Positions 27,608 to 58,278 of a stretch of 58,278 nt of DNA are shown here, piece by piece. How positions within the stretch are numbered: the first letter of the stretch is position 1; each line of letters starts with the position of its first letter. Below the pieces are notes generated by a model, which was not told the DNA's origin, searched no databases, and saw only the letters and a program-made list of their open reading frames with translations. The stretch is from a virus (Duplodnaviria > Caudoviricetes): positions 1 through 58,278 of IMG/VR virus record IMGVR_UViG_3300032069_000867. The stretch is one strand, 5' to 3'. The position numbers and the translations under genes are program-made.

Positions 27608-28177
27608 ATGCCGCGAGGGACGCCGGAAGAACGAGAGGCGATTGCGCGCCGGCAGGAGCGGGTCTGGCACTTGCGCGTGGTGCGCAAACTGACCGAACAC
27701 GAGGTCAGCCAGCTCATGAGCATCTCGCGGCGCACCATCACCCGCGACCTGGCGGCGATGCGAGCGCGAGGGCAGTCCGCGGTAGCCCTCTCGGCGGCTT
27801 CAGAGAAAGCGGTGGTGGACGCGGGTCTGCAGGCGGTCTCGGAGTTGGATGCCATCGTGCGGCAGGCCTGGACGGACTGCATGGCCGCTCCCGACGGATC
27901 GCTGGCGCGGGTGGGCTATCTCAACCTCGTTCTCAAATCCATCGGGGAACGGCTGCGCATCCTGCAGTCCCTTGGACTGATGAAGAAGGTTCCGGAGGAG
28001 GTGTTGCTTGGTGACCTCGATTTGCGACAACTCAGCGACAGCGAGGCCGAATCTGCCCTTACCTTCCTCCGCGCGTGTGCGAGAGGCGCTGGAGGCCCGG
28101 CTGGCGGCCCTGCTCGAGGAGCGGCGGAATCCCAGGCCGTGGATCGAAGCGAACCTGTGGATTCGCACGAAGGATAG
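27608..28177 (+). CDS. Putative terminase small subunit (HTH)
   Basis: N-terminal HTH (EVSQLMSISRRTITRDL); directly upstream of terL. Confidence 0.7.
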   Translation: MPRGTPEEREAIARRQERVWHLRVVRKLTEHEVSQLMSISRRTITRDLAAMRARGQSAVALSAASEKAVVDAGLQAVSELDAIVRQAWTDCMAAPDGSLARVGYLNLVLKSIGERLRILQSLGLMKKVPEEVLLGDLDLRQLSDSEAESALTFLRACARGAGGPAGGPARGAAESQAVDRSEPVDSHEG

Positions 28178-29633
28178 GCGAGTGATTCCGTTCCTGCTCA
28201 ACGCGGCCCAGGTAGATTACTGGGATCACCGTACGCTTCGGGACATGATTCTGAAGCCGCGGCAACTCGGCTTCACGACGCTGATCTGCGGCCTGTTCTT
28301 CGCGGACACTTTGCTGCGACTGAATACGACTTCGGTGATCGTGGCGCACGATACCGATTCCAGCGAGAAGATCTTCCGCATCGTGCAGTTGTTCTGGGAG
28401 CGGCTGCCAGAGGAGGAGCGACGGCGGGTGGGGCCGCCGCGTTTCTCCAACCGCCGAGAGTTCCTGTGGCCGAAGATCAACAGCCAGTTCTACGTGGGCA
28501 CCGCCGGCAGCCTGACCTTCGGACGGGGACAGACCATCAACAACCTGCACTGCTCGGAGTTCGCCTTCTGGCCGAAGCCTGAAGAAGCCCTGACTGCGCT
28601 GACGGAAGCGGTGCCCACCGGTGGCCGAATCGTCATCGAGTCCACCGCGAATGGGATGGGCAACTTCTTTCACAGCCTTTGGACCGAGGCCAAAAGCGGC
28701 GGCAATGACTTTGCGACAGCGTTCTATGTCTGGTGGGAAGACCCGGCCTATCGGATCGCGGGCGAGCCACTGACCGACCTCAGCCAGGAGGAGACGCGGC
28801 TCAAGCGCGCGTGGAGCCTTGACGACGATCAGATTCGTTGGCGGCGCGATAAGCAGCGGCAGCTTCGAGACCGCTTCAAGGCCGAATACCCTGAGGATGA
28901 TGTGACTTGCTTCCTCGCCAGCGGGCGCTGCTGCTTTGATATCAGCGCGCTTGTCGCTGCGCAGGCGCGCATCGCCGCCGAGCCCGCGCCGGTTGTGCTT
29001 GCTTCGCTCAAGGGCACCAGGAGCAGCGACCTCAGCGTCGCTCCTGCGCGTTTGTCGATCTGGAAAAGGCCGGAGGCGGGTCGGCAGTATGTCGTCGGCG
29101 CGGACGTGGGCGAAGGGCTGGCGGGTGGCGATGCATCATCTGCCTGTGTGCTTGACCGGGAGAGTGGGGAGCAGGTCGCCGAACTCCACGGGCGCATCCC
29201 GCCGGATCGTTTTGGCCACCTGCTGGATGCCCTGGGCCGCTTCTACAACCTGGCGACGGTGGCGGTGGAGCGCAATAACCACGGTCACTCCACGCTCAAC
29301 ACGCTGCGGAATGTCTGCCGCTACCCGCGGCTCTACTACCACGTGCGCTACGACCAGACGGGCAAAGGGAAGCCCATGCTCGGCTGGCCGACCGACCAGG
29401 CCACCAAGCCGATCCTGGTGGATGACCTGGCGGCGGCGATCGCGGGCGGGCACCTGCTGATCCATTCGCCCGACCTGGTGGACGAGTGCTTGACCTTTGT
29501 AACCACGGATACCGGCTCTCAGGAGGCGCAGGAGGGCAAGTTCGATGACCGGGTGATGGCGGCCGGCATCGCCTGGCAGGCGCGCAAGCGGGGCGTGTCG
29601 CGCGGCACGACACAACGGCCGGCGGGGTGGTAG
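28077..29633 (+). CDS. terL: Terminase large subunit (start uncertain, 28008-28077)
   Basis: LKPRQLGFTT, LHCSEFAFW, ESTANG, GADVGEG, VERNNHG, DDRVMA. Confidence 0.93.
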   Translation: MREALEARLAALLEERRNPRPWIEANLWIRTKDRRVIPFLLNAAQVDYWDHRTLRDMILKPRQLGFTTLICGLFFADTLLRLNTTSVIVAHDTDSSEKIFRIVQLFWERLPEEERRRVGPPRFSNRREFLWPKINSQFYVGTAGSLTFGRGQTINNLHCSEFAFWPKPEEALTALTEAVPTGGRIVIESTANGMGNFFHSLWTEAKSGGNDFATAFYVWWEDPAYRIAGEPLTDLSQEETRLKRAWSLDDDQIRWRRDKQRQLRDRFKAEYPEDDVTCFLASGRCCFDISALVAAQARIAAEPAPVVLASLKGTRSSDLSVAPARLSIWKRPEAGRQYVVGADVGEGLAGGDASSACVLDRESGEQVAELHGRIPPDRFGHLLDALGRFYNLATVAVERNNHGHSTLNTLRNVCRYPRLYYHVRYDQTGKGKPMLGWPTDQATKPILVDDLAAAIAGGHLLIHSPDLVDECLTFVTTDTGSQEAQEGKFDDRVMAAGIAWQARKRGVSRGTTQRPAGW

Positions 29634-29643
29634 GGAAGAGGCA

Positions 29644-29904
29644 ATGCAAACGTTGAAAGCACCAGCCACGAGTCTCAAGTCTCTGGGAGAGGCCCTCCTC
29701 CAGATCAGCGACGAGTTGCCGGTGAAACTGCCCGCGGGTTGTGAGTTGCGCGTCGTCTCCGCCGCCCAGGCGGCGCTGCTCGACTTCTTCGCCGAGAATC
29801 CCTACTGCACCATCGAGGAACTCGACGTGCACGCGGGCGACCCAGACCTGGTGCGGCTGCGGTTGTCGGAGGCGGCGGTAAAGAAGATCAAGCTCGTCAG
29901 GTGA
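29644..29904 (+). CDS. Small DUF2292/YezD-like protein (candidate late antiterminator)
   Basis: LLDFFAENPYCTIEELDVHAGDP...KKIKL matches the repeat pattern of 5928-6242. Confidence 0.65.
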   Translation: MQTLKAPATSLKSLGEALLQISDELPVKLPAGCELRVVSAAQAALLDFFAENPYCTIEELDVHAGDPDLVRLRLSEAAVKKIKLVR

Positions 29905-29966: not shown

Positions 29967-30015
29967 TTGACCATTGTTTCGGTATATGGTATAGTTTCAC
30001 CGCAACGGTGAAACT
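29967..30015 (+). promoter_or_regulatory. Promoter and palindromic operator of the AbiE cassette
   Basis: TTGACC-17-TATAGT with TGn extension; perfect AGTTTCACCG-caa-CGGTGAAACT at 29993-30015. Confidence 0.85.
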
Positions 30016-30083
30016 GGCGACTTGGCGAAACACCTCGGTGGTTCGCCAGGGCGGCTATGTTTACCGTCAGGTTGGAGCAAACC

Positions 30084-31184
30084 ATGCCAGCGATCAAAGA
30101 GAGAGATCTGACAGCACAGACCGCCCAGCGCCTTCGGCAGGTGCTGGAGGAAGTGCCATTCGTGGATGTGCTGCGGATCGAGCAGCAGGTACCCATCGCG
30201 CCCGGCCGCGTGTCCGACCTGGTGGTGGAGATTCAGACGCCCGTCGGAGCGCGCCGGCTCCTGGTGGAGGTGAAGACAGAGGGTCTTCCGAGGACCCTGC
30301 GTGACGCCGGAGAGCAGCTCAAGGCTTATGTCACGAGTCTGCCAGATGCCTACGGGGTGGTGGCTGCTCCCTACATAAGCGACCGGGGCCGGGCTCTCTG
30401 CCAGCAGCTCGGGGTCGGCTGTCTCGATCTCGCTGGGAATGTTCTGCTCGCCTTTGACCAAGTGTTCATTGAGAAGACCGGATACCCCAATCCCTCGCCC
30501 GTGCGGAAACTTCGGAGGGCGCTGTTCTCACCGCGGTCCACGCGGGTCTTGCGTGTCCTGCTCGCCGACCCTGCGCGGCGGTGGTACGTCCGCGACCTGG
30601 CGGCCGAAGCGCGGATCAGTCTTGCGCAGACCTCCAACTTGAAGCGGGTGCTGCTCGAACAAGACCTGCTGGGCGAAGAGCGCCGCCGCTTCTGGCTGGC
30701 GAAACCTGACGACCTCCTTCGCGATTGGGCGCAGGCCTACACCTACGAAGTGAACGACGTGCGGTCTCTGTACTCGATGCTCCGCATTCCAGAGGTGGAG
30801 GAGCGCCTTGCCGCGGAGTGTGAACGGAGAGGCATGCGCTACGGCTTGGCCCTGTTCTCGGGTGCAAGCCGGGTTGCCCCTTTCGCTCGCTATGACCGCG
30901 CCTTTGCATTCGTTGATGAGAGACCTGACGAGATTGCAGCGGCATTGGAGTTGAAGGCGGTCCCCACGGGGGCCAACGTGATCCTGCTCCGCCCCTACGA
31001 TGAGGGCGTCTTCTACGCGCTCCAGGACGTCGGGGGAGCGAAGGTCGTGTCGGACATCCAACTTTACCTCGACTTGAGGAGCTACAAGGGCCGTGGCGAA
31101 GAGGCCGCAGACTTCCTCTACGAAAGGCGCATCAAGCCGCGATGGAACCCAGAACCCGATCAGACTACACAGCCAGAGCAGTAG
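30084..31184 (+). CDS. Type IV TA antitoxin, AbiEi-like
   Basis: N-terminal D...EVK segment, central wHTH, C-terminal VSDIQLYLDL...GRGEEAA. Confidence 0.85.
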   Translation: MPAIKERDLTAQTAQRLRQVLEEVPFVDVLRIEQQVPIAPGRVSDLVVEIQTPVGARRLLVEVKTEGLPRTLRDAGEQLKAYVTSLPDAYGVVAAPYISDRGRALCQQLGVGCLDLAGNVLLAFDQVFIEKTGYPNPSPVRKLRRALFSPRSTRVLRVLLADPARRWYVRDLAAEARISLAQTSNLKRVLLEQDLLGEERRRFWLAKPDDLLRDWAQAYTYEVNDVRSLYSMLRIPEVEERLAAECERRGMRYGLALFSGASRVAPFARYDRAFAFVDERPDEIAAALELKAVPTGANVILLRPYDEGVFYALQDVGGAKVVSDIQLYLDLRSYKGRGEEAADFLYERRIKPRWNPEPDQTTQPEQ

Positions 31185-31999
31185 ACGCCGCCTTTTCGGT
31201 GCTCATCGAGTTGTTCGGCATGCTCGGCGAGTTCCGCGAACACATCGCGGTCATCGGCGGCTGGGTGCCGCACCTGATCCTCCGCGATGCAGACACAGAG
31301 CCAGCGGGCACCTTGGACGTGGATCTGGCCATAGACTTTGCGCACATCTCGGACGATACCTACAGCACGTTCCTCAAGGCGCTTGAGACGCGCGGCTACC
31401 GACAAGACCACGAGCAGCCCTTCCGATTCTTCAAGGCGGTCACCATCGGAGATGGCCCGCCGGTCGAGGTCGAAGTTGATCTCCTGGCCGGAGAGTACGG
31501 GGGGACCGGGAAGGGCCGCCGCACGCAGGTCGTCCAGGATGTCCGAGCCCGCAAAGCACGTGGGGCTGACTTGGTCTTCGACCACTGCGTCCAGGTTCGC
31601 GTCGAGGGACGGCTGCCGAACGGTGCGCTTGACACGGTGACCGTGAAGGTCGCAGACGTGGTGGCCTTCCTCGTGATGAAGGGAATGGCTCTTCATGACC
31701 GGCGCAAGGAGAAGGATTGCTACGACATCTTCTACTGCGTCGCCAACTACCCAGGAGGTGTTGCTGCCTTGGTAGAGGCCTTCCGGCCTCATATCGACAA
31801 GCGGCTGGTGGCTGAAGGCTTGTCGAAGATACGGAGCAAGTTCCTCTCACCTGAGCATTTCGGGCCGGTCGCGGTCGCTGAGTTTCTTGAGATCGCCGAT
31901 CCGGAGGAGCGTGCCATCGTGACTCGCGATGCCTATGAGCGCCTGAATGCGCTCCTGGAGCAACTGCAAGTCAGGCTCTGGGAGGATTCCCCGGCGTAA
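31142..31999 (+). CDS. AbiEii-like nucleotidyltransferase toxin
   Basis: VIGGW...TLDVDL; MKGMAL.DR..EKD.YDI. Confidence 0.85.
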   Translation: MEPRTRSDYTARAVDAAFSVLIELFGMLGEFREHIAVIGGWVPHLILRDADTEPAGTLDVDLAIDFAHISDDTYSTFLKALETRGYRQDHEQPFRFFKAVTIGDGPPVEVEVDLLAGEYGGTGKGRRTQVVQDVRARKARGADLVFDHCVQVRVEGRLPNGALDTVTVKVADVVAFLVMKGMALHDRRKEKDCYDIFYCVANYPGGVAALVEAFRPHIDKRLVAEGLSKIRSKFLSPEHFGPVAVAEFLEIADPEERAIVTRDAYERLNALLEQLQVRLWEDSPA

Positions 32000-32000
32000 C

Positions 32001-32732
32001 ATGATCAGATTTGGGATCAGGCAATCATTTAACACCCTCGACCAGTTTGCCGCACGCTATCGCGAGCGTCGGATTCCTCTCGAGCTGGCGCTGCCTTACA
32101 GGATGACGGACTACGAACTGATCCGCCCTCACCTCACTGAACTCGCCGACTTGCTCGTGCAGTGGCAGACGCCGATCCTCAGCCTTCATGCTCCACAGGG
32201 CAGGCTCGCCGAGCCAGGTTTCCGGATCTGGGCGGAGGAGGTGGGGCGGTTCGCTGCTGCACTGCGAGTCCGTGAGATCACCCTCCACCCCAGCCGGTTT
32301 CAGAAGGATCGGCCCGTGCATGAACTCCAGCACACGGTATTGCGCATCTGCCAAGAGATTGAAGCAGCATATTCGGTGATCTTTTGCCTGGAAACCTTCA
32401 CGGGAGGCAAGCGACTCTTCAGTATCGACGACATCATGCGATTCGAACGTCCGATGACGCTGGATGTTGCCCACCTTCATGACACGGAAGTGGTGTGGCG
32501 GATCGTGCATCAGTACCATCCGCATATCTCCACCGTCCATCTCTCCGGCAAGGGCGGCGACAGAACGCATCACCTGCCCATCGATGACGAGTGCTTGCAG
32601 GTTGTGGAAGCCTTGGTCAGGTATGGCTGGCAGGGAAATGTCATCCTCGAATATCTTCCCGACTATCATGATCGCCTGGAGGAGGACTTTCAGTTGCTGC
32701 AACAGAGATTCTGTGGCACAACCACTGCTTGA
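32001..32732 (+). CDS. AP-endonuclease-2 / xylose-isomerase-like TIM-barrel protein
   Basis: SLHAP, TLHP, CLET, TLDVAH, VHLS, HLP, ILEY metal-ligand pattern; starts 1 nt after the toxin stop. Confidence 0.85.
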   Translation: MIRFGIRQSFNTLDQFAARYRERRIPLELALPYRMTDYELIRPHLTELADLLVQWQTPILSLHAPQGRLAEPGFRIWAEEVGRFAAALRVREITLHPSRFQKDRPVHELQHTVLRICQEIEAAYSVIFCLETFTGGKRLFSIDDIMRFERPMTLDVAHLHDTEVVWRIVHQYHPHISTVHLSGKGGDRTHHLPIDDECLQVVEALVRYGWQGNVILEYLPDYHDRLEEDFQLLQQRFCGTTTA

Positions 32733-32757
32733 CGCTGGGAGGCTCCGGGCATAGAAT
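32729..32757 (+). promoter_or_regulatory. Sigma70 promoter for the portal operon
   Basis: TTGACG-17-TAGAAT. Confidence 0.8.
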
Positions 32758-32763
32758 GCTGAC

Positions 32764-32843
32764 AATCGAATAGACGCTCGGCGACCGGATAACCGGAGGC
32801 GAGCCGCAGGTTCCCTGACAGGACCTCGGCTCGCTTTTGCTTT
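32764..32843 (+). ncRNA. Leader attenuator RNA, copy 2 (before portal)
   Basis: GAATAG-N9-GA-CCGG-ATAA-CCGG-AGGCG overlapping terminator hairpin 32797-32836 with TTTTGCTTT. Confidence 0.75.
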
Positions 32844-32865
32844 CCCAGCGGAAAGGAGATATGTA

Positions 32866-34368
32866 GTGGCACTTGACCTGAGCACTTACCCGCCCAAGGG
32901 GCACCAGGAGCGCATCGCCACTTACCAGCGGTATGAGCGGCTGTTCCTGGGGCAGCACAAGCTGGTCTTTGCGGTGGTGCCGCAGCCCTACCAGATGAAG
33001 CGCTATATCGTGGCCAACTTCGCCGGGCTGATCTCGCGGCTTTCCGCTGACCTGCTTTTCGGGGAGCAGCCAGACTTCCTTTCGGCTTCGCTCAAGGCAG
33101 GCCTGGCAACACAGGAGGATGAGAAGGCGCAGGAAGCGCTGGCCCAGGTCGTCAGTCGCAATAACCTGCACGCCGTCAACTACGAATCGGCTCTGTCCAA
33201 CTCGTTTCGCGGGGACGCAGTCTACAAGGTTCGCTGGGGCAAGCGGACTCCGACGGCGGAGGCACCAGAGTCTATCATCGAGGAGGTGCCTGCCAGCATC
33301 TACTTCCCAGAACTGGATGACGATGATGTGCGGCGCGTGCTGCGGGTGACGCTGGCCTGGGTGAAGCGTGATCCGAAGGATACCAAGCGTGCCTACCTGC
33401 GGGCCGAGGTGCACGAGCCAGGTGTCATCCGGCATCAACTGTTTGACCTGGGCAGCGTCTCCACTCTGTCCGTCGCTGGAGGCCAGGCCGCGACGATCAC
33501 GATTGGCGGTAAGGCGCTCCAGCAGATTCCTCTGAAGACCCTCGAGGCCTACCAGGACTTGCCAGAGGAGGAACAGACCGGTCTGGATCACGTCCCGATC
33601 TTCCACGTGCCCAACTTCCGCTATGGCTCCCGTTTCTGGGGGATCAGCGACTACGAGGGGCTGGAGTCGCTCTTCGAGTCCCTGAACAACCGCGTCTCCC
33701 AGATCGACGAGGTGCTGGACAAGCACGTGGCTCCGAAGATCGTGGTGCCGCCCGGCTTCGTGGACGAAGATGGGAAGATTCGCTTCGACCACATGGAGAC
33801 CATCGAGCTGGGGCCGGGCGATCAGCCGCCCTCCTACATCACCTGGGACGCCCACCTGACCGCGGCCTTCACGCAGTTCGAGAAACTCCTTGATCTGCTG
33901 TTCATGCTCTCCGAGACCGCGCCGTCGGCTTTCGGGCTGGACAAGTTCGGAGTCGCCGAAAGCGGCCGGGCGCTGCGGCTTCGCCTGCTGCGCACGCTGG
34001 CGAAGATCAACCGGAAGCGGCTCTACTACGATACCGCGCTGAAGGCGGCGCTGCTCACCGCCCAGGTTCTCGACGTGACCCACGGCTCTGGCGAATACGA
34101 ACCTGCCGAGCCAACCATCCAGTGGGCGGACGGGCTGCCGGAGGACATGGTCGAGATGGTGGAGATCGAGAGCCAGCGGCTGGCGGCAGGCAACACGTCG
34201 GTTGAATCCTCGGTGCGTCGGCTGGACGGCCCAGACGCCGTGGAGGCCGAGATGGCGCGGATCGGGGAGGAGACGGGACAGGCAACTACTCTCACCGGGG
34301 CGGCTGGCGGTAAGGGGCAGGAAGCCCGCACTGAGGACCAGCCGGAGGCCGGGGCAGAGGGCGCCTGA
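32866..34368 (+). CDS. Portal protein (SPP1 gp6-like)
   Basis: VANFAGLI...ADLLFGE, HVPN...WGISDY, ESGRAL; position after terminase. Confidence 0.92.
   Translation: MALDLSTYPPKGHQERIATYQRYERLFLGQHKLVFAVVPQPYQMKRYIVANFAGLISRLSADLLFGEQPDFLSASLKAGLATQEDEKAQEALAQVVSRNNLHAVNYESALSNSFRGDAVYKVRWGKRTPTAEAPESIIEEVPASIYFPELDDDDVRRVLRVTLAWVKRDPKDTKRAYLRAEVHEPGVIRHQLFDLGSVSTLSVAGGQAATITIGGKALQQIPLKTLEAYQDLPEEEQTGLDHVPIFHVPNFRYGSRFWGISDYEGLESLFESLNNRVSQIDEVLDKHVAPKIVVPPGFVDEDGKIRFDHMETIELGPGDQPPSYITWDAHLTAAFTQFEKLLDLLFMLSETAPSAFGLDKFGVAESGRALRLRLLRTLAKINRKRLYYDTALKAALLTAQVLDVTHGSGEYEPAEPTIQWADGLPEDMVEMVEIESQRLAAGNTSVESSVRRLDGPDAVEAEMARIGEETGQATTLTGAAGGKGQEARTEDQPEAGAEGA
33078..33102 (+). repeat. Possible REP-like insertion in portal
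   Basis: CCTTTCGGCTTCGCTCAAGGCAGGC, hairpin-like; reads LSASLKAG in frame; single copy in the window. Confidence 0.45.
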
Positions 34369-34413
34369 GGTGCCCATGCGGTGGATCTGTGTCATCCGAC
34401 ATGTTGCGCCTGC

Positions 34414-34466
34414 AGTCTGGTTTCCGCCTTCGCCGAGGCTACGGCGGACAAGTCGGGGCTGTGGAC
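34414..34466 (+). repeat. REP-like hairpin plus flanks, duplicate of 25514-25567
   Basis: AGTCTGGTTTCCGCCTTCGCCGAGGCTACGGCGGACAAGTCGGGGCTGTGGAC. Confidence 0.8.
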
Positions 34467-34501
34467 ATGGTCTCAGCACCTGTCGTGAGGAGCGTTGAGG
34501 C

Positions 34502-36568
34502 GTGCCTCCACCCATCGGGCGTCGACGCATTGAGGAATTCCGGCGGGCATTCACCGGCGAGATTGACTCGCTGGCTGCCCTCTACCGCGACGCGGCCGCA
34601 GACATGATGGACGTTCTCGCGGACGCGGCGACGCTCGCTGGACAGCGGGGCCGGGCGGTCGCCCTGCTGCGGCAGTACCAGACCATCCTCGCCGACCTGG
34701 GCGATGAGGCTGCGGCGTGGATAGAGTTTAACATCCCGCGCGCTTACGATATCGGGCTGGAGTTCGGCGACGAGGGGATTCGCAACATCCGCCGTGCCGG
34801 AATCAACCTGCGACGTCGAGGCACGACGATAACGGGTCGCAGGGAGCGGGAGGTGTTCTCCCAGGTGCACCGGGAAGCGGCGCGGGCAATCACGGAGTCC
34901 ATGCTGCAGACCACCAATGCGGCGCTTGCTCAGATTGGCCGCCGCGTGGATGATGTCTTCCGCCGCGAAGGAATGCTGGCTGTCGCCAGGGGGATCGCAG
35001 CAGGCCGCGCCCGAGTCGAGGTGAGTCGGGAACTGGAGCAGCGGCTGATTGCTGCGGGCAGGCCGACGTTCGTGGATGCGCTGGGGCGGCAATGGCCCCT
35101 CGACCGCTATGCCGAGATGGTAGCCCGCACCACCACCCGCGAGGCCATGACCCAGGGCACCATCAACCGGCTGCGCGAGCACAGCGTCACCCTCGCTCAA
35201 GTATCGGCGCACAATGCGGAAGACTTCTGCCGCTACTACGAAAACGCCATTGTCTCCCTGGACGGCTCGCACCCTGTCTACCCGCCGATCTCGGCGATCA
35301 ACGGCCCCCCGCCCTGGCATCCGAACTGTATCCACGTGCTCACGCCCTTCGTGGAGCGCCTAGCGACTGACGAGGAGAAGAAACGGGGCATCATCTCGCC
35401 CGACCTGCTCAACAAGCCTCCGGCCGAACTCCAGCGGCGCTTCCGCAAGGAGTTTCCTGGCGTGGCCCGGGCCGCGGGAAAGCGAGGGCTTGCACGGGCG
35501 GGGCGGGCAAGGGTTGCCGCGGCGCGAGGGCGGCCCAAGCCCACACGGGCGCATGCCCCCGAGCCTGAGCTGCGCGCCCTGGAGGAGGGGACTGTCCTGC
35601 GCCGCACCTACAAGGGCCGCGAGTACCTCGTCCAGGTGGTGGAGGGAGGCAAGGTCTACTTCGAGGGCGGCGTCTATCACTCGCTGACCGATGTCGCCCG
35701 GATCATCACTGGGCAGAGGGCAATCAGCGGGCCGGCTTTCTTCGGCGTGGCGGAGCGCGGCAAGCGCACCGGGCAGGCCGTGGCCGCCGCGCGGCCCGTC
35801 GCTGCTCCGCCCAAGCTGCCGAAGCCGAAGACAGACCTGGAACTGACGGGGCGCACTTGCGATGACTTGGCTGAGATGATGGGCGCGAAGCATGGATGGA
35901 ATGGAGACTTGCGCACCGGTCGAGGCGCCTTCGGCGGGCACAAGGACTGGGACTGCGCCATCAGCATCGGCTCGGAGGCAAGGGATCGCGTGGATGCGAT
36001 GCTGAAGCACGATGCAGCTTCCTGGGCAAAGCTTTCCCGGAACCAGAAGATGGAAATGACCTCTTCCTTCAACACCCTGGTGCATGAGGCGACTCATGCT
36101 ATGGGGGTGGAGGGGGCAATCAAGACCCACGAGTACGCGACGGCGGCGCAGCGGTGGATAGAGGAAGGCCTTACCGCCGCGGGGGCCGACGAGACGGCGC
36201 CGAAGCTCTTCGAGCGGATCATGGGGTTCCCCTCCGGCCTGGACAAGCGCGACTTTGCCGGGATGGCAAGCTACAGCGATTACCAGCAGGCCCTGGCGAA
36301 GGCGCTCGGCGGGCCTTATGCCGGGCGCTCGATGTCTGAGCCAATGCGGGGGATTGACCCGAAGCTCTACCTGGACTTGGCCTACCGCACGCCTCGCGAC
36401 CAGCGGCTCTGGGAGCTATCGAAGCGCATGGAGAGCTACTACGGACGAACAGAGCGCGGCGTGAGAACGGCGGTGGAGATAGAAGCCATCGTAGGGCACT
36501 CGGCAGACCACAAAGTGGTGGTGAATTTCGCCGAAGAGGCCCTGGCACTACAGCAAGCGAGGCCGTAA
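34502..36568 (+). CDS. MuF-type minor capsid protein fused to a DUF2924-like domain and an HExxH metallopeptidase
   Basis: DALGRQW.LDRYAEMVART and PPWHPNCIH (minor capsid); GTVLRRTYKG...YHSLTDVARIITG...GPAFFG; LVHEATH...IEEG. Confidence 0.85.
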   Translation: MPPPIGRRRIEEFRRAFTGEIDSLAALYRDAAADMMDVLADAATLAGQRGRAVALLRQYQTILADLGDEAAAWIEFNIPRAYDIGLEFGDEGIRNIRRAGINLRRRGTTITGRREREVFSQVHREAARAITESMLQTTNAALAQIGRRVDDVFRREGMLAVARGIAAGRARVEVSRELEQRLIAAGRPTFVDALGRQWPLDRYAEMVARTTTREAMTQGTINRLREHSVTLAQVSAHNAEDFCRYYENAIVSLDGSHPVYPPISAINGPPPWHPNCIHVLTPFVERLATDEEKKRGIISPDLLNKPPAELQRRFRKEFPGVARAAGKRGLARAGRARVAAARGRPKPTRAHAPEPELRALEEGTVLRRTYKGREYLVQVVEGGKVYFEGGVYHSLTDVARIITGQRAISGPAFFGVAERGKRTGQAVAAARPVAAPPKLPKPKTDLELTGRTCDDLAEMMGAKHGWNGDLRTGRGAFGGHKDWDCAISIGSEARDRVDAMLKHDAASWAKLSRNQKMEMTSSFNTLVHEATHAMGVEGAIKTHEYATAAQRWIEEGLTAAGADETAPKLFERIMGFPSGLDKRDFAGMASYSDYQQALAKALGGPYAGRSMSEPMRGIDPKLYLDLAYRTPRDQRLWELSKRMESYYGRTERGVRTAVEIEAIVGHSADHKVVVNFAEEALALQQARP

Positions 36569-36570
36569 GC

Positions 36571-36798
36571 ATGTCCGATTTCATCGACGAACTACTGCGT
36601 GGAAGGAGGAAAGGGCACCGCATCCGGCCCGGCTTCATGGAAGAGGCGAGCGCCGCGATTATGCGGGCCGCTGGCACGCCGGAGGCCCGGCGGACCCTCC
36701 AGCGCTATCTCCGACGAGCCCGAGGCGGCCTGGAGCGCGCCCAGCTCATGCGCATGGAGGAGATGCTTGTCATGGCGGAGGGCGCCGGCGAGGATTGA
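36571..36798 (+). CDS. Small hypothetical protein (candidate immunity partner)
   Basis: 75 aa, starts 2 nt after the MuF stop; next promoter lies downstream. Confidence 0.6.
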   Translation: MSDFIDELLRGRRKGHRIRPGFMEEASAAIMRAAGTPEARRTLQRYLRRARGGLERAQLMRMEEMLVMAEGAGED

Positions 36799-36890
36799 CA
36801 AGCCCCCTCGGATCAGGTCAGGGGCGGACAGCAAGGCGCTGGCACGCAGCAGACCACCCCGCCCGGGACACAGGCCGCGGGAAGAGGGTA

Positions 36891-36918
36891 TTGACACCTG
36901 GCCCGGGTGCGATAGAAT
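36891..36918 (+). promoter_or_regulatory. Sigma70 promoter for scaffold/capsid/tail operon
   Basis: TTGACA-16-TAGAAT. Confidence 0.8.
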
Positions 36919-36924
36919 AGGGTG

Positions 36925-37027
36925 AACTGAATAGCATACCGCCGACTCGATAACGAGAGGCGGGCTTTCTGAGAGCTGTGCCTGGTAGCCCCAGGCGGCT
37001 CAGAGAAAGCCCGCCTCTTTGCTTTTT
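36925..37027 (+). ncRNA. Leader attenuator RNA, copy 3 (before head genes)
   Basis: GAATAG-N9-GA-CTCG-ATAA-CGAG-AGGCG; perfect 15-bp stem 36956-70/37004-18 followed by TTGCTTTTT. Confidence 0.78.
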
Positions 37028-37042
37028 CAGGAGATGCTGGAG

Positions 37043-37396
37043 ATGGCGATCCGGATTGACAACTCGACGGTTTCGGACAAGGCGTGGGGCGACGTGGACA
37101 AGGCCGCCCTGGCGCGGCGGCTTGCTGAGAACGGCGACGCCGCCGTGATACGGGAAGCCTTTGCCTACGTGCCTGACCTGGAGAACCGCAGCGAGTGGGG
37201 CGGGCCGCACCACGAACTCCAGGGAGACACCCTGGTCGTGAACCGCAACGGCGTGCATGCGTTGGCCGCTGCCCTGTCCGGCGCGCGCGGCGGAGTGAAG
37301 TGGCCTCCTTCGGCGCGGGTGGCCGCGCTGGCCCACGTGCGCAAGCACTACGGCGCAATGGATGAGGAGCCGCCGGAGGGCATGAGTGCCGAGTAA
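37043..37396 (+). CDS. Head-module hypothetical protein
   Basis: PHH...GVHALAAALSGARGG...AHVRKHY; GGAG RBS; first gene of the head operon. Confidence 0.75.
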   Translation: MAIRIDNSTVSDKAWGDVDKAALARRLAENGDAAVIREAFAYVPDLENRSEWGGPHHELQGDTLVVNRNGVHALAAALSGARGGVKWPPSARVAALAHVRKHYGAMDEEPPEGMSAE

Positions 37397-37397
37397 C

Positions 37398-37487
37398 GGC
37401 TTCCCGCCATAGGCGGGAAAGCCTCTGAGATAACCGCCCGCCGGAGCGATATCCGGCGCACCCGCCGCGGGGCGTTAAACCGGAGGG
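37398..37487 (+). promoter_or_regulatory. Structured leader of the scaffold gene
   Basis: TTCCCGCC-ata-GGCGGGAA hairpin; CGCCGGA/TCCGGCG stem; CGCC-GCGG-GGCG-TTAAA-CCG pseudoknot-like unit abutting the RBS. Confidence 0.5.
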
Positions 37488-37492
37488 AGACC

Positions 37493-38356
37493 ATGAGCGA
37501 AGGAACCGAGAATCAGCAGGGACAGCAAGGAACTGGCAGCCAGGGTCAGGCCGACGCCCAGTCGGTCGGCTCAGAGCAGGCCGTCCAGGGCGCTAACGCC
37601 GCTCAGTCGGCAAGCGCCGGGCAGGCGGGCCAGCCCGCCGCGCAGACAGGCCAGTCCAGCACAGGCGGACAGCAACCTGCCCAGGGACAGCAAGCCGAGG
37701 GTGCCCAGACCCGCCAGACTGAGGGCGGGCAAGCTCAATCGCAAACGCCGGCGACACAGGCGAAGGGCATTCAGGTGAAGCTGAGCCAGGAGCAGATCGA
37801 CCGCCTGGTCAAGGACGGCACCCTGGAGTTGAGCGACGACACGTTCACCGGCGCGGTGCGGGATCGCATTGCGCAGTTGACTGCCCGCGCGAAGGGCGCC
37901 GAGCGGCGGCTGGCCGAGATCGCCGCCGCCCAGGAAGAGGCCGAACGCAAGGCCCTCGTGGAGCAGGAGCGGTTCAAGGAGCTCTACGAGAAGGAGCGCC
38001 AGGCGCGGGAGAAAGAGGCATCGGGCCGCAAGGACGACGCCATCCGCGCTCGCTTCCTGCTCGCCGCCCAGTCCAAGGGCGTCGTCGATCCCGATGTCGC
38101 CTTCATCATCGCTAGGTCGCTGCCCCCCTTCGGCGCGGTGCAGGTGGATGATGAGGGCAAGGTGACCGGCATCGACGAGGTCGTCGAGACGCTGGTCAAG
38201 GAGAAGCCCTACCTGGTCTCCCAGCCACAACAGCAACCGAAACCGCAAAGCGTGGGGGCGGCAAGCAACCCGGCTGAACAGAGCCCGCCGCCTCCCAAGA
38301 ATCTCGCCGAGGCTGGAGATCGCCTGGAGCAAGCACTGCGCACCGGCGTGACCTGA
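37493..38356 (+). CDS. Capsid scaffolding protein
   Basis: Low-complexity Q/G/A N-terminus, coiled coil, LVKEKPYL; precedes capsid gene. Confidence 0.85.
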   Translation: MSEGTENQQGQQGTGSQGQADAQSVGSEQAVQGANAAQSASAGQAGQPAAQTGQSSTGGQQPAQGQQAEGAQTRQTEGGQAQSQTPATQAKGIQVKLSQEQIDRLVKDGTLELSDDTFTGAVRDRIAQLTARAKGAERRLAEIAAAQEEAERKALVEQERFKELYEKERQAREKEASGRKDDAIRARFLLAAQSKGVVDPDVAFIIARSLPPFGAVQVDDEGKVTGIDEVVETLVKEKPYLVSQPQQQPKPQSVGAASNPAEQSPPPPKNLAEAGDRLEQALRTGVT

Positions 38357-38365
38357 CCCGGCACA

Positions 38366-38392
38366 CCCGCCGTCGCCAAGGCTATGGCGGGC
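38366..38392 (+). repeat. REP-like hairpin (intergenic)
   Basis: CCCGCCGTCGCCAAGGCTATGGCGGGC. Confidence 0.8.
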
Positions 38393-38409
38393 TAAAGAAG
38401 GAGTGAGAA

Positions 38410-39321
38410 ATGGCTGCGACCACAACCACGCTGGCCGAACTGATCGTCCAGCTATACAAGGGGCCGTGGGTGGAGGCCCTGTTCACCAACACTTTCCTGC
38501 TCACCCGCATCCAGCAGAAGCAGGGCGCGGGCGAGGGAGTCCGCTGGCCGGTGCGCTATGGCGGGAACACCTCCGCCGGCTCCTACGCGGAGACTGACAC
38601 CGGCGCGGGGGCAGGAAACCAGGGCTTCAAGAAAGCCTTCCTCGGCTGGAAGCTCAACAAGGTCGAGGTGGAGGTCTCCGGCCTGGCGCAGGCAGTCGGT
38701 GATGCGGGCGGGATGATCGTCCCCGCGCTGCGCACCGAACTCGACCTGGGTCTGTCGGATATGCGGGGCAACATCAACACCCAGTTGATGTCAGACGGCA
38801 CCGGCAACTCCGGCAAGGACGTCACCGGGCTGTTCGCAGCGATCGCCGACACCGGCACCTACGCCGGCCTTGACCGTGGGACTTATACCTGGTGGAAGTC
38901 CTACGTCAGCGCCAACGGCGGAACCCCGCGCAACCTCACCGAGGAACTAATACGCACCGTCAAGTCCGCGGTCGAGGCGCGAGGCGGTCGGGTGACGGAG
39001 ATCTACTGTGGCTCCACTCAGTGGTATCGCTACGGCGATCTGCTGAGGGCGGAGCGGCGCCAGCAGAATCCCACCAGTCTGACTGGAGGTTACCAGGCGC
39101 TCGACTTCGAGGGTGTCCCGGTGATCAAGGTGCCCGGCTACCCGCAGACACGCATGGACTTCGTGGACAAGGAGCTCCTGGAGTACGTCGTGCTCAAGGA
39201 CTTCGAGGCCAAGCCCATGGCGAAGACCAAGGACTCCGACGTGATCTGGGTCACTCATTACAGCCAGCTGGTCTGCCGCAACCCCTACCGCATGGGGAGC
39301 CTGCAAGACCTGGCGCAGTAG
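38410..39321 (+). CDS. Major capsid protein
   Basis: 303 aa after scaffold; DGTGNSGKDVTGL, YAGLDR, LDFEGVPVI, SQLVCRNP. Confidence 0.88.
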   Translation: MAATTTTLAELIVQLYKGPWVEALFTNTFLLTRIQQKQGAGEGVRWPVRYGGNTSAGSYAETDTGAGAGNQGFKKAFLGWKLNKVEVEVSGLAQAVGDAGGMIVPALRTELDLGLSDMRGNINTQLMSDGTGNSGKDVTGLFAAIADTGTYAGLDRGTYTWWKSYVSANGGTPRNLTEELIRTVKSAVEARGGRVTEIYCGSTQWYRYGDLLRAERRQQNPTSLTGGYQALDFEGVPVIKVPGYPQTRMDFVDKELLEYVVLKDFEAKPMAKTKDSDVIWVTHYSQLVCRNPYRMGSLQDLAQ

Positions 39322-56163: not shown

Positions 56164-56415
56164 GTGATCAAGTTGTGGACATGGATGAAGTACCTGTATC
56201 TGGCGATCAGGTTGGGCACGCTGTTCGAGAACCTGAAGGTGGTTCGCGCAAGCGACCCCGCAGTCACCAGCGAGTCCTACCAGCCGGCCTCGGCCGCCAT
56301 CCTGGATGACCCCGGGGTGCAGCGGTGGCTGGGCCGGCTCTCGCCGGAGGAGCAGGCGCGCTTCACCGAGGGCCTGCCGACTTTCGTTTGGGGACTGGAC
56401 GCGCTCACCGAGTAG
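56164..56415 (+). CDS. Small hypothetical lysis-region protein
   Basis: AAGGAGGT RBS favours a start near 56173. Confidence 0.6.
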   Translation: MIKLWTWMKYLYLAIRLGTLFENLKVVRASDPAVTSESYQPASAAILDDPGVQRWLGRLSPEEQARFTEGLPTFVWGLDALTE

Positions 56416-56442
56416 GGCAGCCGCGGCAGAATCAGGAGGACA

Positions 56443-56476
56443 GGCCCCGCTCAGCCGCGGCGGGGTCTTTCTTTCT
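56443..56476 (+). terminator. Terminator of the late operon
   Basis: GGCCCCGCT-cagccgc-GGCGGGGTC then TTTCTTTCT. Confidence 0.75.
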
Positions 56477-56575
56477 GCCTCACACCCCGCAGAAACCACT
56501 CATTCCGGCCTTGACTTCCCTGCGGAAGCAGGCATGAATGTAATGGCAAACAGGTGTGTGATAGCGAGGCAGAAG

Positions 56576-57532
56576 ATGGCGCAGACGCAGATAGAGAGCA
56601 GCAAGGCAGAGACCTACCGGTGGGGTTGTGAGATCGAGTGCTTCCTGCCCGACCAGGCGATCAGGGAGCTGGGCATCAGCATCGGCTCCTACCACCACGG
56701 TCACCCACTGCCCTCGCCCTTCCCGCAGGGCTGGACGGCGGAGCGGGACGGCAGCCTCCGCAGCGACCGCAGGGGCTACGTCCCCGTCGAGGTAGTGAGC
56801 CCGATACTCCAGGGGCGGGCCGGAATCGAGCAGGTCAAGCAGGTGGCGCAGACGCTCAAGGGCCTGGGGGCAGTCGTGAATACCACAGCGGGGCTCCACG
56901 TGCACTGCTCGGCCGAGGCCGTCGCCGGCGACGGCTTCGCAAAGGTCGCCGAGTGGGTCGCCAAGCTCCTCTACCACGTGGCGATGCATGAGACCGCGCT
57001 CTACGCCTCGACCGGAACGCATCGCAGGGAGAACGGCGGCTACGCCCGCAGCATCAAGGCGCAGAAGAACGCAGCCGACAGGGTGCGCCGCGCTCCTGAT
57101 ACGCGCAAGCGCGAAGCCCTCCAGGATGCGGTCTACGGACTCGCTCGCTACCACACGCTGAACCTCACCAACTTGTTCACTCGCAAGGCCACGGTCGAGT
57201 TCCGCCACGGTGCCGGGACGGTCGAGTGGACGAAGATGGTGGCCCACATCCAAATGGCGCTCGCCCTCTGCGAGCGGGCCACCGAGACCGCAAAGATGGA
57301 CTGGGATGCCCTCGCCAGTGAGCGCACCTACCAGGTGAGGGGCAAGGGTCTGCGGGAACTCAACCGGTTCTTCTACCTCGCGGGCTGGACTCTGGGCCGC
57401 CGAGATGTGGGCAAGCCCCAGGTCGAGATGGCTGGATGGATTGCCGACCTGGCGGACCTGAAGGTGGTGAAACGAGAGCTCAAGCGTTTAGCGCGCAAGT
57501 ATGATTCCACGGCGCGAGAGGGAGCCGCCTGA
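56576..57532 (+). CDS. Amidoligase (COOH-NH2 ligase type 2)
   Basis: WGCEIE, DGSL, EVVSPIL, AGLHVH, RYHTLNL, TVEFRH. Confidence 0.92.
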   Translation: MAQTQIESSKAETYRWGCEIECFLPDQAIRELGISIGSYHHGHPLPSPFPQGWTAERDGSLRSDRRGYVPVEVVSPILQGRAGIEQVKQVAQTLKGLGAVVNTTAGLHVHCSAEAVAGDGFAKVAEWVAKLLYHVAMHETALYASTGTHRRENGGYARSIKAQKNAADRVRRAPDTRKREALQDAVYGLARYHTLNLTNLFTRKATVEFRHGAGTVEWTKMVAHIQMALALCERATETAKMDWDALASERTYQVRGKGLRELNRFFYLAGWTLGRRDVGKPQVEMAGWIADLADLKVVKRELKRLARKYDSTAREGAA

Positions 57533-58278
57533 TGTGCGGGGTCCTCGGCTGGATTGGCAACCCGAAGCACTGGCGCGATTCCCACCGGCTCATGGTGGAA
57601 CTCGCAATTGCCTCCGAGGAGCGAGGGACAGATGCGGCGGGCTATGCCGTGCTCACCGCGAGCGGCGAGTTGCTCTGGCAGCAGCAACCAGGGCCGGCGC
57701 GACTGCTCTTCCGGGACAAAGAGTTCGCGGCGCTTCGGCGGAGGAACGTGGTCATGGCGATCGGCCACACCCGCCTCGCCACCACGGGCGCGCCGGCAGT
57801 CAACGGGAATAACCACCCACACCTGGCAGGCAACCTTGTCGGCGGCAGGCCAGCGTGGGCACTCGTCCACAATGGATTCATACCCCTGCACGAACACAAG
57901 GCGGCCGCGCTCGGCGTGCGCCTCGAGTCCCAGTGCGACTCGGAAATCTTGGCGCAGGTTCTTGACCGATACGGCGAGACGGAAGGGCCGGAGACCTGCC
58001 TGGCGCTCGGCGGGAAGCAATCGGTTCTCGCCATCAACGTCGCCTCCAGAACGATGCTTGCCTGGACGAACGGCGAGATGCCGCTGGTCGCGTTCCGTAT
58101 CGACGGGCTGACCGGAACCTGGTGGGCCTCCACCGCGGCCATCGCGCGACGTGCACTGGAGCGGCTCGGCCTCACCGCCCGCTTCGCCAAGCCCGTACCC
58201 CGGGTGGTGTATCGCCTGGAGTTGGCGGACGGCGAGGTGACGATGACTCAACGGAAGTTGGAGACGCAAATCGGATGA
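57532..58278 (+). CDS. Class II glutamine amidotransferase
   Basis: MCG N-terminus, RGTDAAG, GHTRLATTG, NNHP, HNG, DSE. Confidence 0.93.
   Translation: MCGVLGWIGNPKHWRDSHRLMVELAIASEERGTDAAGYAVLTASGELLWQQQPGPARLLFRDKEFAALRRRNVVMAIGHTRLATTGAPAVNGNNHPHLAGNLVGGRPAWALVHNGFIPLHEHKAAALGVRLESQCDSEILAQVLDRYGETEGPETCLALGGKQSVLAINVASRTMLAWTNGEMPLVAFRIDGLTGTWWASTAAIARRALERLGLTARFAKPVPRVVYRLELADGEVTMTQRKLETQIG

Follow-up and report, generated by a model that had tools for sequence, protein, structure and literature searches.

Two putative factor-dependent attenuators, in which a hairpin and a terminator share a strand, precede the morphogenesis operons of an uncultivated phage

Layout of the two leaders

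The window, by which we mean the whole stretch of phage DNA analysed here (58,278 nucleotides; IMG/VR record IMGVR_UViG_3300032069_000867), contains a pair of similar leaders, one lying 5' of the portal gene (32729–32843) and the other 5' of the scaffold and capsid operon (36891–37027). Each copy has a TTGAC-N16/17-TAGAAT promoter. The leader behind it opens with AAYYGAATAG and goes on through a bulged hairpin, termed P1, to a second, strong hairpin that is followed by a TTTGCTTT tail. The individual features are as follows.

32729..32757, plus strand: copy 1 promoter; -35 TTGACG, 17-nt spacer, -10 TAGAAT; 10 of 12 consensus positions
32764..32773, plus strand: copy 1 predicted RNA 5' end and single-stranded box AATCGAATAG; start placed from the -10 spacing
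32776..32804, plus strand: copy 1 P1; lower stem GCTCGGC/GGCGAGC, 5' bulge GA, upper stem CCGG/CCGG, loop ATAA, 3' bulge A
32798..32843, plus strand: copy 1 predicted intrinsic terminator; stem GGCGAGCCG...CGGCTCGCT, reusing the P1 3' strand; tail TTTTGCTTT; -25.0 kcal/mol
32866..36798, plus strand: operon putatively gated by copy 1; portal 32866–34368, minor head protein 34502–36568, 75-aa ORF 36571–36798
36891..36918, plus strand: copy 2 promoter; -35 TTGACA, 16-nt spacer, -10 TAGAAT; 11 of 12 consensus positions
36925..36934, plus strand: copy 2 predicted RNA 5' end and box AACTGAATAG, assigned from the sequence
36939..36963, plus strand: copy 2 P1; lower stem CCGCC/GGCGG, bulge GA, upper stem CTCG/CGAG, loop ATAA, bulge A
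36959..37027, plus strand: copy 2 predicted intrinsic terminator; long stem opening with GGCGGG of P1; tail TCTTTGCTTTTT; -44.5 kcal/mol
37043..39321, plus strand: start of the operon putatively gated by copy 2; 117-aa ORF 37043–37396, scaffold 37493–38356, major capsid protein 38410–39321

Most of these features had been described in the initial annotation, and they stand. Both leader sequences lie where it had placed them, behind promoters of the TTGAC..TAGAAT type; the lower stems pair as proposed (GCTCG(G)C with G(G)CGAGC, and CCGCC with GGCGG), and the upper stems differ at two base pairs, both of them compensated (CCGG/CCGG versus CTCG/CGAG). Each leader ends in a hairpin plus tail, whole-leader folding giving the terminator hairpins at -34.8 kcal/mol for copy 1 (z -2.75) and -57.3 kcal/mol for copy 2 (z -7.8), followed by TTTTGCTTT and TCTTTGCTTTTT, respectively.

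The pattern GAATAG-N8-12-GA-N4-ATAA-N4-AGGCG matches the window exactly twice, at 32768–32801 and 36929–36962, both on the plus strand, and had no match in any of 100 dinucleotide-preserving shuffles. A covariance model run over the window with filters off recovered the two leader copies at E-values of about 1e-7; the third-best match had an E-value of 0.62, and no third copy was thus found in the window. Only four promoter-like sites were located between 24000 and 43000, two of them being the leader promoters. The copy 2 promoter is kept in relatives, and the copy 1 box is conserved in most of them. Searches with Rfam 15 gave no family match at the gathering score in the whole window, while at E <=10 the region 32600–37200 yielded just four matches of chance level (snoRNA, miRNA and intron models), far under their thresholds.

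A strand shared by P1 and the terminator

The initial annotation overlooked that P1 is reused in the terminator, and this is the new element of the present analysis. In all 37 distinct leaders gathered, which come from this phage and some 25 viral and metagenome contigs related to it, the terminator takes its 5' strand from the 3' side of the P1 lower stem. The GGCGx sequence at the 3' end of P1 has at least four of its five nucleotides paired at the terminator base (37/37), and in copy 1 the first five nucleotides of the terminator are all paired (5/5). Copy 1 also displays a three-way compensation across the shared strand. Upstream, a TTGAC-N16-19-TAnnnT sequence is found in 32 of the 37 leaders. 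Since one strand serves both structures, P1 and the terminator are mutually exclusive. Over the distinct leaders the folding energies are -22 to -48 kcal/mol for the terminators and -10 to -16 kcal/mol for P1.

Because the terminators are 10–30 kcal/mol stabler than P1 and a strand displacement of 5–7 bp is enough, one would expect termination by default. The reverse polarity, in which P1 lets polymerase through by default and a factor of the lysogen, from phage or host, binds the box and the P1 5' strand, frees GGCGG and promotes termination in the manner of PyrR or TRAP, would fit these mutually exclusive structures as well; the conserved 5' box does directly adjoin the P1 5' strand. We regard this polarity as quite unlikely in view of the stabilities just given, and since the class-specific part of the leader is the hairpin top (see below), which is present only with P1 folded.

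Perhaps there is no switch at all: P1 could stabilise the 5' end or mark a site of processing, and the terminator could serve as leaky insulation between the operons. Nothing specific speaks for this null view of a promoter followed by a hairpin. An insulator would not put a strong terminator after the promoter with strand sharing kept in 37/37 leaders, and class-matched tops would be left unexplained, which makes it highly improbable.

In a processive element of the nut or put kind, the box and hairpin, whether or not aided by a phage protein and host Nus factors, would load onto RNA polymerase and render it resistant to terminators along the whole operon, the overlap with the first terminator being incidental. 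In its favour are the two copies per phage, each just 3' of a promoter; the conserved single-stranded box followed by a phage-specific hairpin, an arrangement like that of boxA and boxB; and the length of the operon behind copy 2, about 19 kb, in which connector and tail genes come after the major capsid protein. However, no plus strand terminator-like site requiring processivity was found in this operon from 37043 to about 56400, so bypass of one local terminator would suffice. The strand sharing in all 37 leaders and the three-way compensation in copy 1 are hard to call incidental, no N-like or NusG-like protein was found among the approximately 85 window ORFs scanned against Pfam, and a put-like action on the conserved host polymerase alone would not predict phage-specific tops. 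A processive element is therefore unlikely, and we retain competition between P1 and the adjoining terminator as the preferred reading.

Covariation in P1

Folded alone, P1 reaches -17.0 kcal/mol in copy 1 (z -2.7) and -15.6 kcal/mol in copy 2 (z -3.8). Both copies have the loop ATAA, a GA bulge on the 5' side and an A bulge on the 3' side. Among 13 hand-picked leaders, 89.2% of the P1 cells are paired versus 36–51% with the partner strand slid; among 31 distinct rows, taken from 36 model matches, the figures are 91.9% and 36–50%. Three upper-stem pairs occur as 3–4 pair types each, counts which do not represent independent events since the relatives share phylogeny. On the 5' strand of the upper stem only C<->U changes occur, facing an invariant G, with U-G pairs in 15, 12 and 4 rows; these favour this strand as the RNA, since the other strand would have A-C mismatches. 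Covariation, G-U pairs included, supports P1 as a real RNA structure.

RNA, and not DNA, is likewise supported as the level of the signal, because the stems covary with G-U pairs and the shape is kept while the stem sequence changes between copies, and because the GAATAG box stays beside P1 though its distance from the promoter varies. In the copy 2 leaders of hairpin classes B and C (see below) an extra hairpin shifts the box some 35–40 nt from the promoter, and the box still adjoins P1.

These observations bear upon a Q-like mechanism at the DNA level, in which the GAATAG region would cause a sigma-dependent pause and a DNA-binding antiterminator would meanwhile load at the promoter. A short RNA does result where a terminator follows a promoter, as at lambda pR' (see also PMC7547250), and xxGAAT of the box repeats part of the -10 TAGAAT. 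Against this, the box is without an A at position 2 of the -10-like hexamer, the two sites of one phage differ in stem sequence, the stems covary with G-U pairs, the box has moved away from the promoter together with P1 in classes B and C, and no Q-family domain was found by Pfam in the approximately 85 ORFs. We find such a mechanism hardly credible and proceed with an attenuator acting through RNA.

Relatives and hairpin classes

Two strong copies were present in each of the five related records examined, and exactly two in every related record with enough DNA. All 37 matches, from 25 sources, have the orientation of the genes and lie 5' of the portal gene or else 3–4.6 kb further on, before the scaffold operon. 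A first pattern scan of IMG/VR matched 109 stretches, and 12 of the 80 examined passed the model at E <=0.01, these being 10 leaders of the same clade and two plain terminators. The second scan matched at least 118 stretches, of which 80 were examined and five passed, all on known contigs. A search for class B returned eight stretches on contigs of at most 9.85 kb, and a metagenome scan returned 13 loci, the longest contig being 14.3 kb. No host or prophage relative was found in 185,579 species genomes searched with the portal protein, as a single protein and as an alignment.

Within a phage, both copies carry the same hairpin top, that is, bulges and loop. Fourteen records contain both copies; this 15–17-nt top is identical in nine of them, while the tops of the other five differ by two compensated pairs or by 2 loop bases. 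The 35 nt after the top are just 14–29% identical between the copies of the same 14 records, which among them have eight distinct tops. Between phages the tops fall into at least eight classes, even where the portals are 92–97% identical. Class B phages and the window share small and large terminase subunits at 94–98% identity and the portal at 94–97%, and, where visible, the minor head, orf75, orf117, scaffold and capsid proteins at 88–97%. Judged from these identities, hairpin class does not track the neighbouring genes. The blastn homology between the window and L006 ends at the stop codon of the large terminase gene (29640) and restarts at the portal start (32866), and at the copy 2 site the leader alone is replaced, within conserved promoter and coding sequence. 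The region of the leader and small gene would appear to be a swapped cassette. Since the tops are specific to each phage and agree between its two copies, a cognate trans factor is indicated.

The variety of tops also weighs upon a riboswitch or physical sensor, in which the internal loop of P1 would sense a small molecule, an ion or temperature. The leader is compact and conserved, it has an expression platform, and the Pfam scan of approximately 85 ORFs found no domain of a protein factor. Yet the bulges and loop, which would have to form the pocket, vary more than any other part and occur as at least eight tops; the hairpin is very small, and no Rfam family emerged even at E <=10. A sensor is very unlikely in our view, and the text below returns to a trans factor.

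A small gene after the large terminase

The following gene is the candidate for such a factor.

29644..29904, plus strand: sm86, small gene of 86 aa, putative cognate factor; directly 3' of the large terminase gene

In relatives, the small gene directly before leader 1 occupies the corresponding position. Among the genes visible in class B, which include the terminase subunits and reach to the capsid protein, the small gene between the large terminase and leader 1 is alone in changing with hairpin class; a factor encoded in the early region might conceivably switch as well. Because the small gene and leader 1 are physically linked, their co-replacement needs no functional tie, and such a tie is argued only by the matching of copy 2. 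From this we infer, weakly, that sm86 is the best candidate for the factor.

Both small-protein families are genuine and conserved, with 54 homologues for the one and 27 for sm86. One homologue bears the name of an Armatimonadota MAG, which is a lead only. The candidate proteins are slightly acidic by residue count and matched nothing in Pfam, PHROG or PDB; a Pfam scan of the approximately 85 window ORFs gave no RNA-binding or antiterminator domain. The only lead came from a neighbouring cluster in the ESM Atlas, 30% of whose members carry DUF2292 (score 0.79). DUF2292 (YezD-like; Pfam PF10055) gave no match to the small post-terminase proteins, either at E <=10 (7 members) or in the scan at E <=1, and a literature search on DUF2292/YezD was uninformative. 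The class B small protein was modelled as a helix and beta-hairpin (pLDDT 75.6), fold searches with this model returning no informative neighbour (Foldseek best E 2.7; VIA-align best Z 3.4); the structure model of sm86 was unusable (pLDDT 54). Homology of sm86 to the small proteins of other classes was not demonstrable (hhalign probability 0.2–0.9%), the link being just an indirect one via a third ORF.

Two other candidates were set aside. ORF104 (5928–6242) is unlikely to be the hairpin reader, being 42% identical in G001 despite identical hairpins and a 94% identical sm86. For an antisense partner of the loop, 16 degenerate-complement matches (at most one mismatch) were found versus 9.1 expected, and the sole exact one was the element itself.

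Proposed mechanism

We propose that the leaders are two copies of a factor-dependent transcription attenuator gating the morphogenesis genes, with a RAT-like mechanism and nut-like specificity, a reading that we hold to be rather probable on the sequence evidence. Such a switch would probably silence the head and tail genes as long as the hairpin is not bound by a phage-specific factor.

A strong host-type promoter would start an RNA with AAYYGAAUAG as its first 10 nt, the start being predicted from the -10 spacing. Next the predicted 25–29-nt bulged hairpin P1, backed by covariation, would form. Its 3' lower strand (GGCGAGC or GGCGGG) would double as the first strand of the far stabler predicted terminator, which is followed by a U-rich tail. 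By default the terminator would displace the lower stem of P1, and transcription would end after about 80 nt in copy 1 or about 103 nt in copy 2. In the lytic phase a phage-specific trans factor may bind the GA bulge, AUAA loop and A bulge that make up the P1 top, and perhaps the 5' box too, and so hold the lower stem shut, such that the last 5–7 bp of the terminator could not form. RNA polymerase would then continue into the portal/minor-head and scaffold/capsid/tail operons. The factor might conceivably be the 86-aa protein encoded just after the large terminase gene (29644–29904), in which case expression of the terminase operon would feed forward to high expression of the structural genes.

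A bolder and more doubtful proposal is that very small (about 75–86 aa) phage RNA-binding antiterminators, encoded just after the large terminase gene, form a new family. Each would read the loop and bulges of its own class, block the strand exchange that completes the terminator, and switch on two strong constitutive head and tail promoters, protein and hairpin classes being swapped as matched sets among near-identical phages. If true, these matched sets would be the late-gene counterpart of N/boxB specificity, working in a RAT-like manner.

To our knowledge, detailed understanding of how temperate phages control their late genes is confined to a few models, with Q-type antiterminators or late activators such as RinA and ArpU. 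This uncultivated sediment phage clade appears to use a different solution, with structural operons that have strong host-type promoters and are gated by small leaders, the specificity loops of which are matched within and swapped between genomes. If true, abundant 80–105-nt leader RNAs are predicted in lysogens; they might be functional in themselves, if the short RNA of the Shiga-toxin phage late promoter is a guide. Should the trans factor be confirmed, compact orthogonal hairpin/factor pairs, in at least eight classes, would lend themselves to work on the evolution of RNA-protein specificity in linked modules.

Comparison with known systems

A full-text literature search located no paper describing the paired leader. 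In lambda pR'-tR' with Q (6S RNA) and in AlpA control of Pseudomonas aeruginosa, a late promoter has a terminator close by and antitermination turns on the late genes (PMC7547250, PMC7969949). The leaders resemble this arrangement, as judged by sequence and folding, in a terminator lying about 80–105 nt after the promoter and a predicted short default RNA. The initial annotation had suggested an attenuation like that of pR' and directed by RNA, with host-type promoters that would fire constitutively in the lysogen. The sigma70-type promoter, the short predicted leader (about 80 or 103 nt) and the terminator before each operon fit this idea, and covariation supports an RNA signal. Q and AlpA load via DNA sites and a promoter-proximal pause, whereas here an RNA hairpin covaries at a variable distance from the promoter (box to -10 varying by about 35–40 nt), with no Q domain in the ORFs scanned. 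Since the hairpin overlaps the terminator, the arrangement is that of a classical, RAT-like competition between antiterminator and terminator and not of a pR'/Q-like loading site.

HK022 put and conAn of pLS20 are cis-acting RNAs just 3' of mobile-element promoters that suppress termination, and in conAn a small protein gene lies directly before the RNA element (PMC8191782), as one does before leader 1 here. Compared by description only, these are larger RNAs acting processively on polymerase, in the case of put without a protein, whereas here one short hairpin precedes a terminator. Terminator strand sharing, as seen in the present leaders, is not described for either of them in the abstract of PMC8191782.

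With lambda N and nutL/nutR (boxA plus boxB) the leaders share two copies per phage 3' of promoters, as well as a conserved single-stranded box 5' of a small phage-specific hairpin that is matched between copies; the box sequence itself is presumably unrelated to boxA. They differ in preceding late (morphogenesis) operons where nut precedes early ones, in the strand that the hairpin shares with the adjoining terminator, and in that processivity would not be needed. No N-like Pfam match was found here, N proteins being small and divergent.

In ANTAR-regulated leaders, hairpins with hexanucleotide loops come as a tandem pair, of which the second overlaps the terminator. Here there is one hairpin with varied loops of 3–6 nt, and the ORF scan gave no ANTAR domain.

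In the RAT-type mechanism (BglG, SacY and LicT; also HutP, GlpP and ANTAR regulators) a protein-stabilised antiterminator hairpin is set against a stabler terminator. The BglG group controls catabolic operons, whereas head and tail operons of a phage are concerned here, and the approximately 85 window ORFs contain no CAT/PRD, ANTAR or HutP domain by Pfam, though the host might encode a CAT-PRD protein. The present leaders differ further in their single hairpin with 3–6-nt loops and a 2-nt/1-nt asymmetric internal loop, and in having two copies per genome with genome-specific tops. What they have in common with the RAT systems is a short imperfect hairpin, the 3' part of which overlaps the 5' strand of an intrinsic terminator, as in 37 of the 37 leaders compared.

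Genome organization and relatives

The 58,278-bp window, a complete IMG/VR provirus record, has a G+C content of approximately 65%, and nearly all of its genes lie on the + strand. Gene order begins with a serine recombinase and its DUF2924 partner, followed by a LexA-like repressor and then a sigma-like protein, replication/recombination genes, and finally DNA methylases and ParB-like proteins. The terminase and structural region is then arranged as follows:

27608-28177, small terminase subunit
28008-29633, large terminase subunit
29644-29904, 86-aa protein (sm86)
29967-32732, three-gene insert with its own promoter
32729-32843, promoter and leader of copy 1 (leader 1)
32866-34368, portal protein
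34502-36568, minor head protein (DUF2924 at residues 327-416), followed by a 75-aa ORF
36891-37027, promoter and leader of copy 2
37043-37396, 117-aa ORF, followed by scaffold, major capsid, connector, tail and lysis-like genes

Two copies of the DUF2924 domain are present, one on a separate protein (125-658) beside the serine recombinase and one inside the minor head protein. The right provirus end (56306-58278) carries amidoligase-like and glutamine amidotransferase-like genes, with a terminator-like hairpin (56442-56468, + strand) inside the amidoligase ORF.

Portal identity to the nearest GenBank phages is only 28-36%, and a portal-based scan of IMG/VR recovered 24 loci at 70-97%. Among the metagenome runs searched for the stretch, DNA of this clade was found mainly in sediments; one run contained nearly the whole searched stretch, six contained a quarter to half, and 17 small shares. 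Scans of species genomes revealed no prophage relatives.

Anatomy of the two leaders

Both leader sequences quoted in the initial annotation were located in the window; their joint pattern occurs twice there and in none of 100 shuffles. In each copy a near-consensus sigma70-type promoter is present, from which RNA is likely to start at an AA approximately 7 nt downstream of the -10 element; the leaders begin with AATCGAATAG or AACTGAATAG. A small bulged hairpin (P1), preceded by a GAATAG box, comprises a lower stem, a 5' GA, a 4-bp upper stem, an ATAA loop and a 3' A, and after it the leader closes with a long hairpin that is rich in G+C and is followed by a T-rich tail. The computed folds of P1 alone are -17.0 and -15.6 kcal/mol for the two copies, and the minimum-energy fold of the full leader is the terminator (-34.8 and -57.3 kcal/mol).

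A third promoter-then-hairpin layout lies at 2819-2877, immediately 5' of the LexA-like repressor gene (2902-3531). Its promoter (TTGACC-17-TATACT, 10/12) is directly followed by a 10-bp G+C-rich hairpin with the tail TTTTCTCTT; this hairpin does not match the leader model and may be a 5' stem-loop or attenuator of the repressor gene. The sigma-like protein (205 aa, 6412-7029) shows weak matches to sigma-70 region 2 and region 4/HTH and is possibly a phage factor directing middle genes, whereas the late promoters both look host-type.

Conservation and covariation

A promoter, homologous hairpin and terminator precede the portal gene in almost all of the 24 loci with upstream DNA. A covariance model built on 13 hairpins from related portal-upstream regions gave 37 matches in the window and these loci, every one on the gene strand; some of them mark a second copy that lies 3-4.6 kb further downstream, ahead of the gene homologous to the 117-aa ORF. 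Only the two leader copies match in the window, and five related records searched whole yielded two strong matches each and nothing else below E 0.025. The sequence TTGAC-N16-19-TAnnnT lies 5' of 32 of 37 distinct leaders. Among the matches listed, IMG/VR pattern scans returned only members of this clade and one new hairpin class; since species genomes also gave no prophage relatives, the element appears to be restricted to a single clade of uncultivated phages.

In a hand-picked alignment 89.2% of cells are paired, a share that drops to 36-51% once the 3' partners are shifted by 1-3 columns; in a model-fitted alignment with 31 distinct rows, which leans towards the model, the values are 91.9% and 36-50%. 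Each of the three inner upper-stem pairs shows 3 or 4 pair types drawn from AU, UA, CG, GC and UG. The aligned sequences are related, so that the covariation events are not independent, yet eight distinct hairpin tops are present among them. The 3' strand of the lower stem is almost invariant, and on the 5' strand the only substitutions are C for U and U for C, which create U-G pairs in 15, 12 and 4 rows. Read on the opposite strand, such pairs would become mismatches; it is therefore the + strand RNA that folds.

In copy 2 leaders of classes B and C (classes being types of P1 top), a further G+C-rich hairpin separates the predicted start site from the GAATA box (L004:6930-6975, L006, L010, L014 and L016), and there the box keeps its place beside P1, not beside the promoter; copy 2 of the window has no such hairpin. 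Box position, the G-U pairs and the fact that stem sequences differ between both sites of a single phage support the earlier proposal that the signal is RNA-directed, and disfavour a Q-like DNA site or operator.

P1 and the terminator share a strand

In both copies the first terminator strand is the 3' strand of the P1 lower stem (GGCGAGC, 32798-32804; GGCGG, 36959-36963), so P1 and the terminator cannot coexist. The two-leader structure described in the initial annotation is present; this sharing had escaped it. For 37 distinct leaders the segment from GGCG up to the T-tract was folded; in all 37 the terminator foot pairs four or five of the first 5 nt, and the terminators ranged from -22 to -48 kcal/mol versus -10 to -16 for P1 alone. 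Copy 1 of the window displays a three-way compensation: its lower stem is GCTCG..CGAGC instead of CCGCC..GGCGG, and the terminator 3' strand is GCTCGC to match.

Specificity classes

The P1 top (15-17 nt: bulges, upper stem and loop) differs between phages and takes, among others, the following forms:

GA-NNNN-ATAA-NNNN-A, class A (including the window)
AT-CATC-GCGCA-GATA-C, class B
GA-CTCG-ACATC-CGAG-A
AG-CATCG-CAA-CGAT-A
GG-CGTTG-ACA-CGACG-A
GG-CATC-GCGCA-GATG-A
GG-CATC-GAGCAA-GATG-A

In nine of the 14 records showing both copies the tops are the same; in the four class A records, the window included, they differ by two compensated base pairs, and in one record by two loop bases. The 35 nt after the top are merely 14-29% identical between copies. 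Class is independent of the flanking genes, portal identity to the window being 97% in L004 (class B) and 93% in L015 (class A). At copy 2 the leader alone has been swapped, with the promoter and the coding sequences on both sides conserved, as would be expected if the two leaders have to suit a single class-specific trans-acting partner. As an alternative, gene conversion would need to work on a 25-nt tract flanked by 5-7 nt of identity, which we judge unlikely.

A candidate trans factor

Where they are visible in both class A and class B, the small and large terminase subunits and the portal, minor head, orf75, orf117, scaffold and capsid proteins show 88-98% identity. For the small protein encoded after the large terminase gene, no counterpart could be detected from one class to the other. 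Blastn homology between the window and the class B phage L006 stops at 29640 and restarts at 32866; the replaced cassette is thus exactly the small gene, promoter and leader 1, the window additionally holding the three-gene insert. The small proteins of classes B to G (approximately 73-81 aa) have the common motif W..L...GG(F/Y/H)G....G.P and 54 homologues, none annotated; relatives at 80-99% identity accompany the class B hairpin and one at 68% a variant of it. Sm86 belongs to a separate family of 27 homologues, and in L015 its counterpart directly adjoins the leader 1 promoter. The predicted structure of the class B protein is a helix plus beta-hairpin (pLDDT 75.6), for which fold searches gave no informative match; the sm86 model is unusable.

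Direct profile comparison of the two families was negative. A 104-aa early ORF (5928-6242, +) aligns weakly to both (hhalign probability 66% and 48%, 32 columns), and a common origin is possible. The aligned part is its N-terminal 35 residues, and by eye the second half repeats the same motif; the ORF is overlapped by a longer minus-strand ORF and is 90% identical in record G006 and only 42% in G001. The small post-terminase protein is a candidate cognate factor of the leaders, albeit a doubtful one, since linkage to leader 1 alone would explain the co-replacement.

The insert, between the small gene and leader 1, has the promoter TTGACC-17-TATAGT with an upstream TG and encodes AbiEi-like, nucleotidyltransferase-like (NTP_transf_8-like) and xylose-isomerase-like TIM-barrel proteins. 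It is absent from L015 and from class B phages such as L006; L004 (a 516-aa ORF), L160, L161 and L164 carry other DNA at this spot, which looks like a hot spot for accessory or defence gene insertion.

Proposed mechanism and comparison with known systems

We propose that host polymerase would fire both promoters and that the nascent RNA would first fold P1. The upper part of the terminator would form next, and its base would oust the P1 lower stem, causing a stop in the U-rich tail; from the folding energies we infer that termination is the default state. Transcription of the upstream operon, up to and including the large terminase gene, would produce a class-specific factor that clamps P1 and blocks the terminator base, allowing high-level expression of the structural operons. 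Local antitermination would be enough, because no further + strand terminator-like site was found between 37043 and about 56400.

The leader is a genuine cis-regulatory element, conserved and not catalogued before; we found no description of it in those parts of the literature that the search covered. Its cis logic is well supported; the trans factor and the behaviour in cells we infer. By the tests made it is a member of none of the RAT-type, lambda N/nut or lambda pR'/Q systems, since the leader has no match in Rfam, none of their cognate protein domains was found in the ORFs scanned and the hairpin is different. In mechanism it is nearest to the RAT-type protein-stabilised antiterminators, in layout to lambda N/nut (two matched sites, each a conserved box and specific hairpin), and in biological role to lambda pR'/Q, a late promoter with an immediate terminator.
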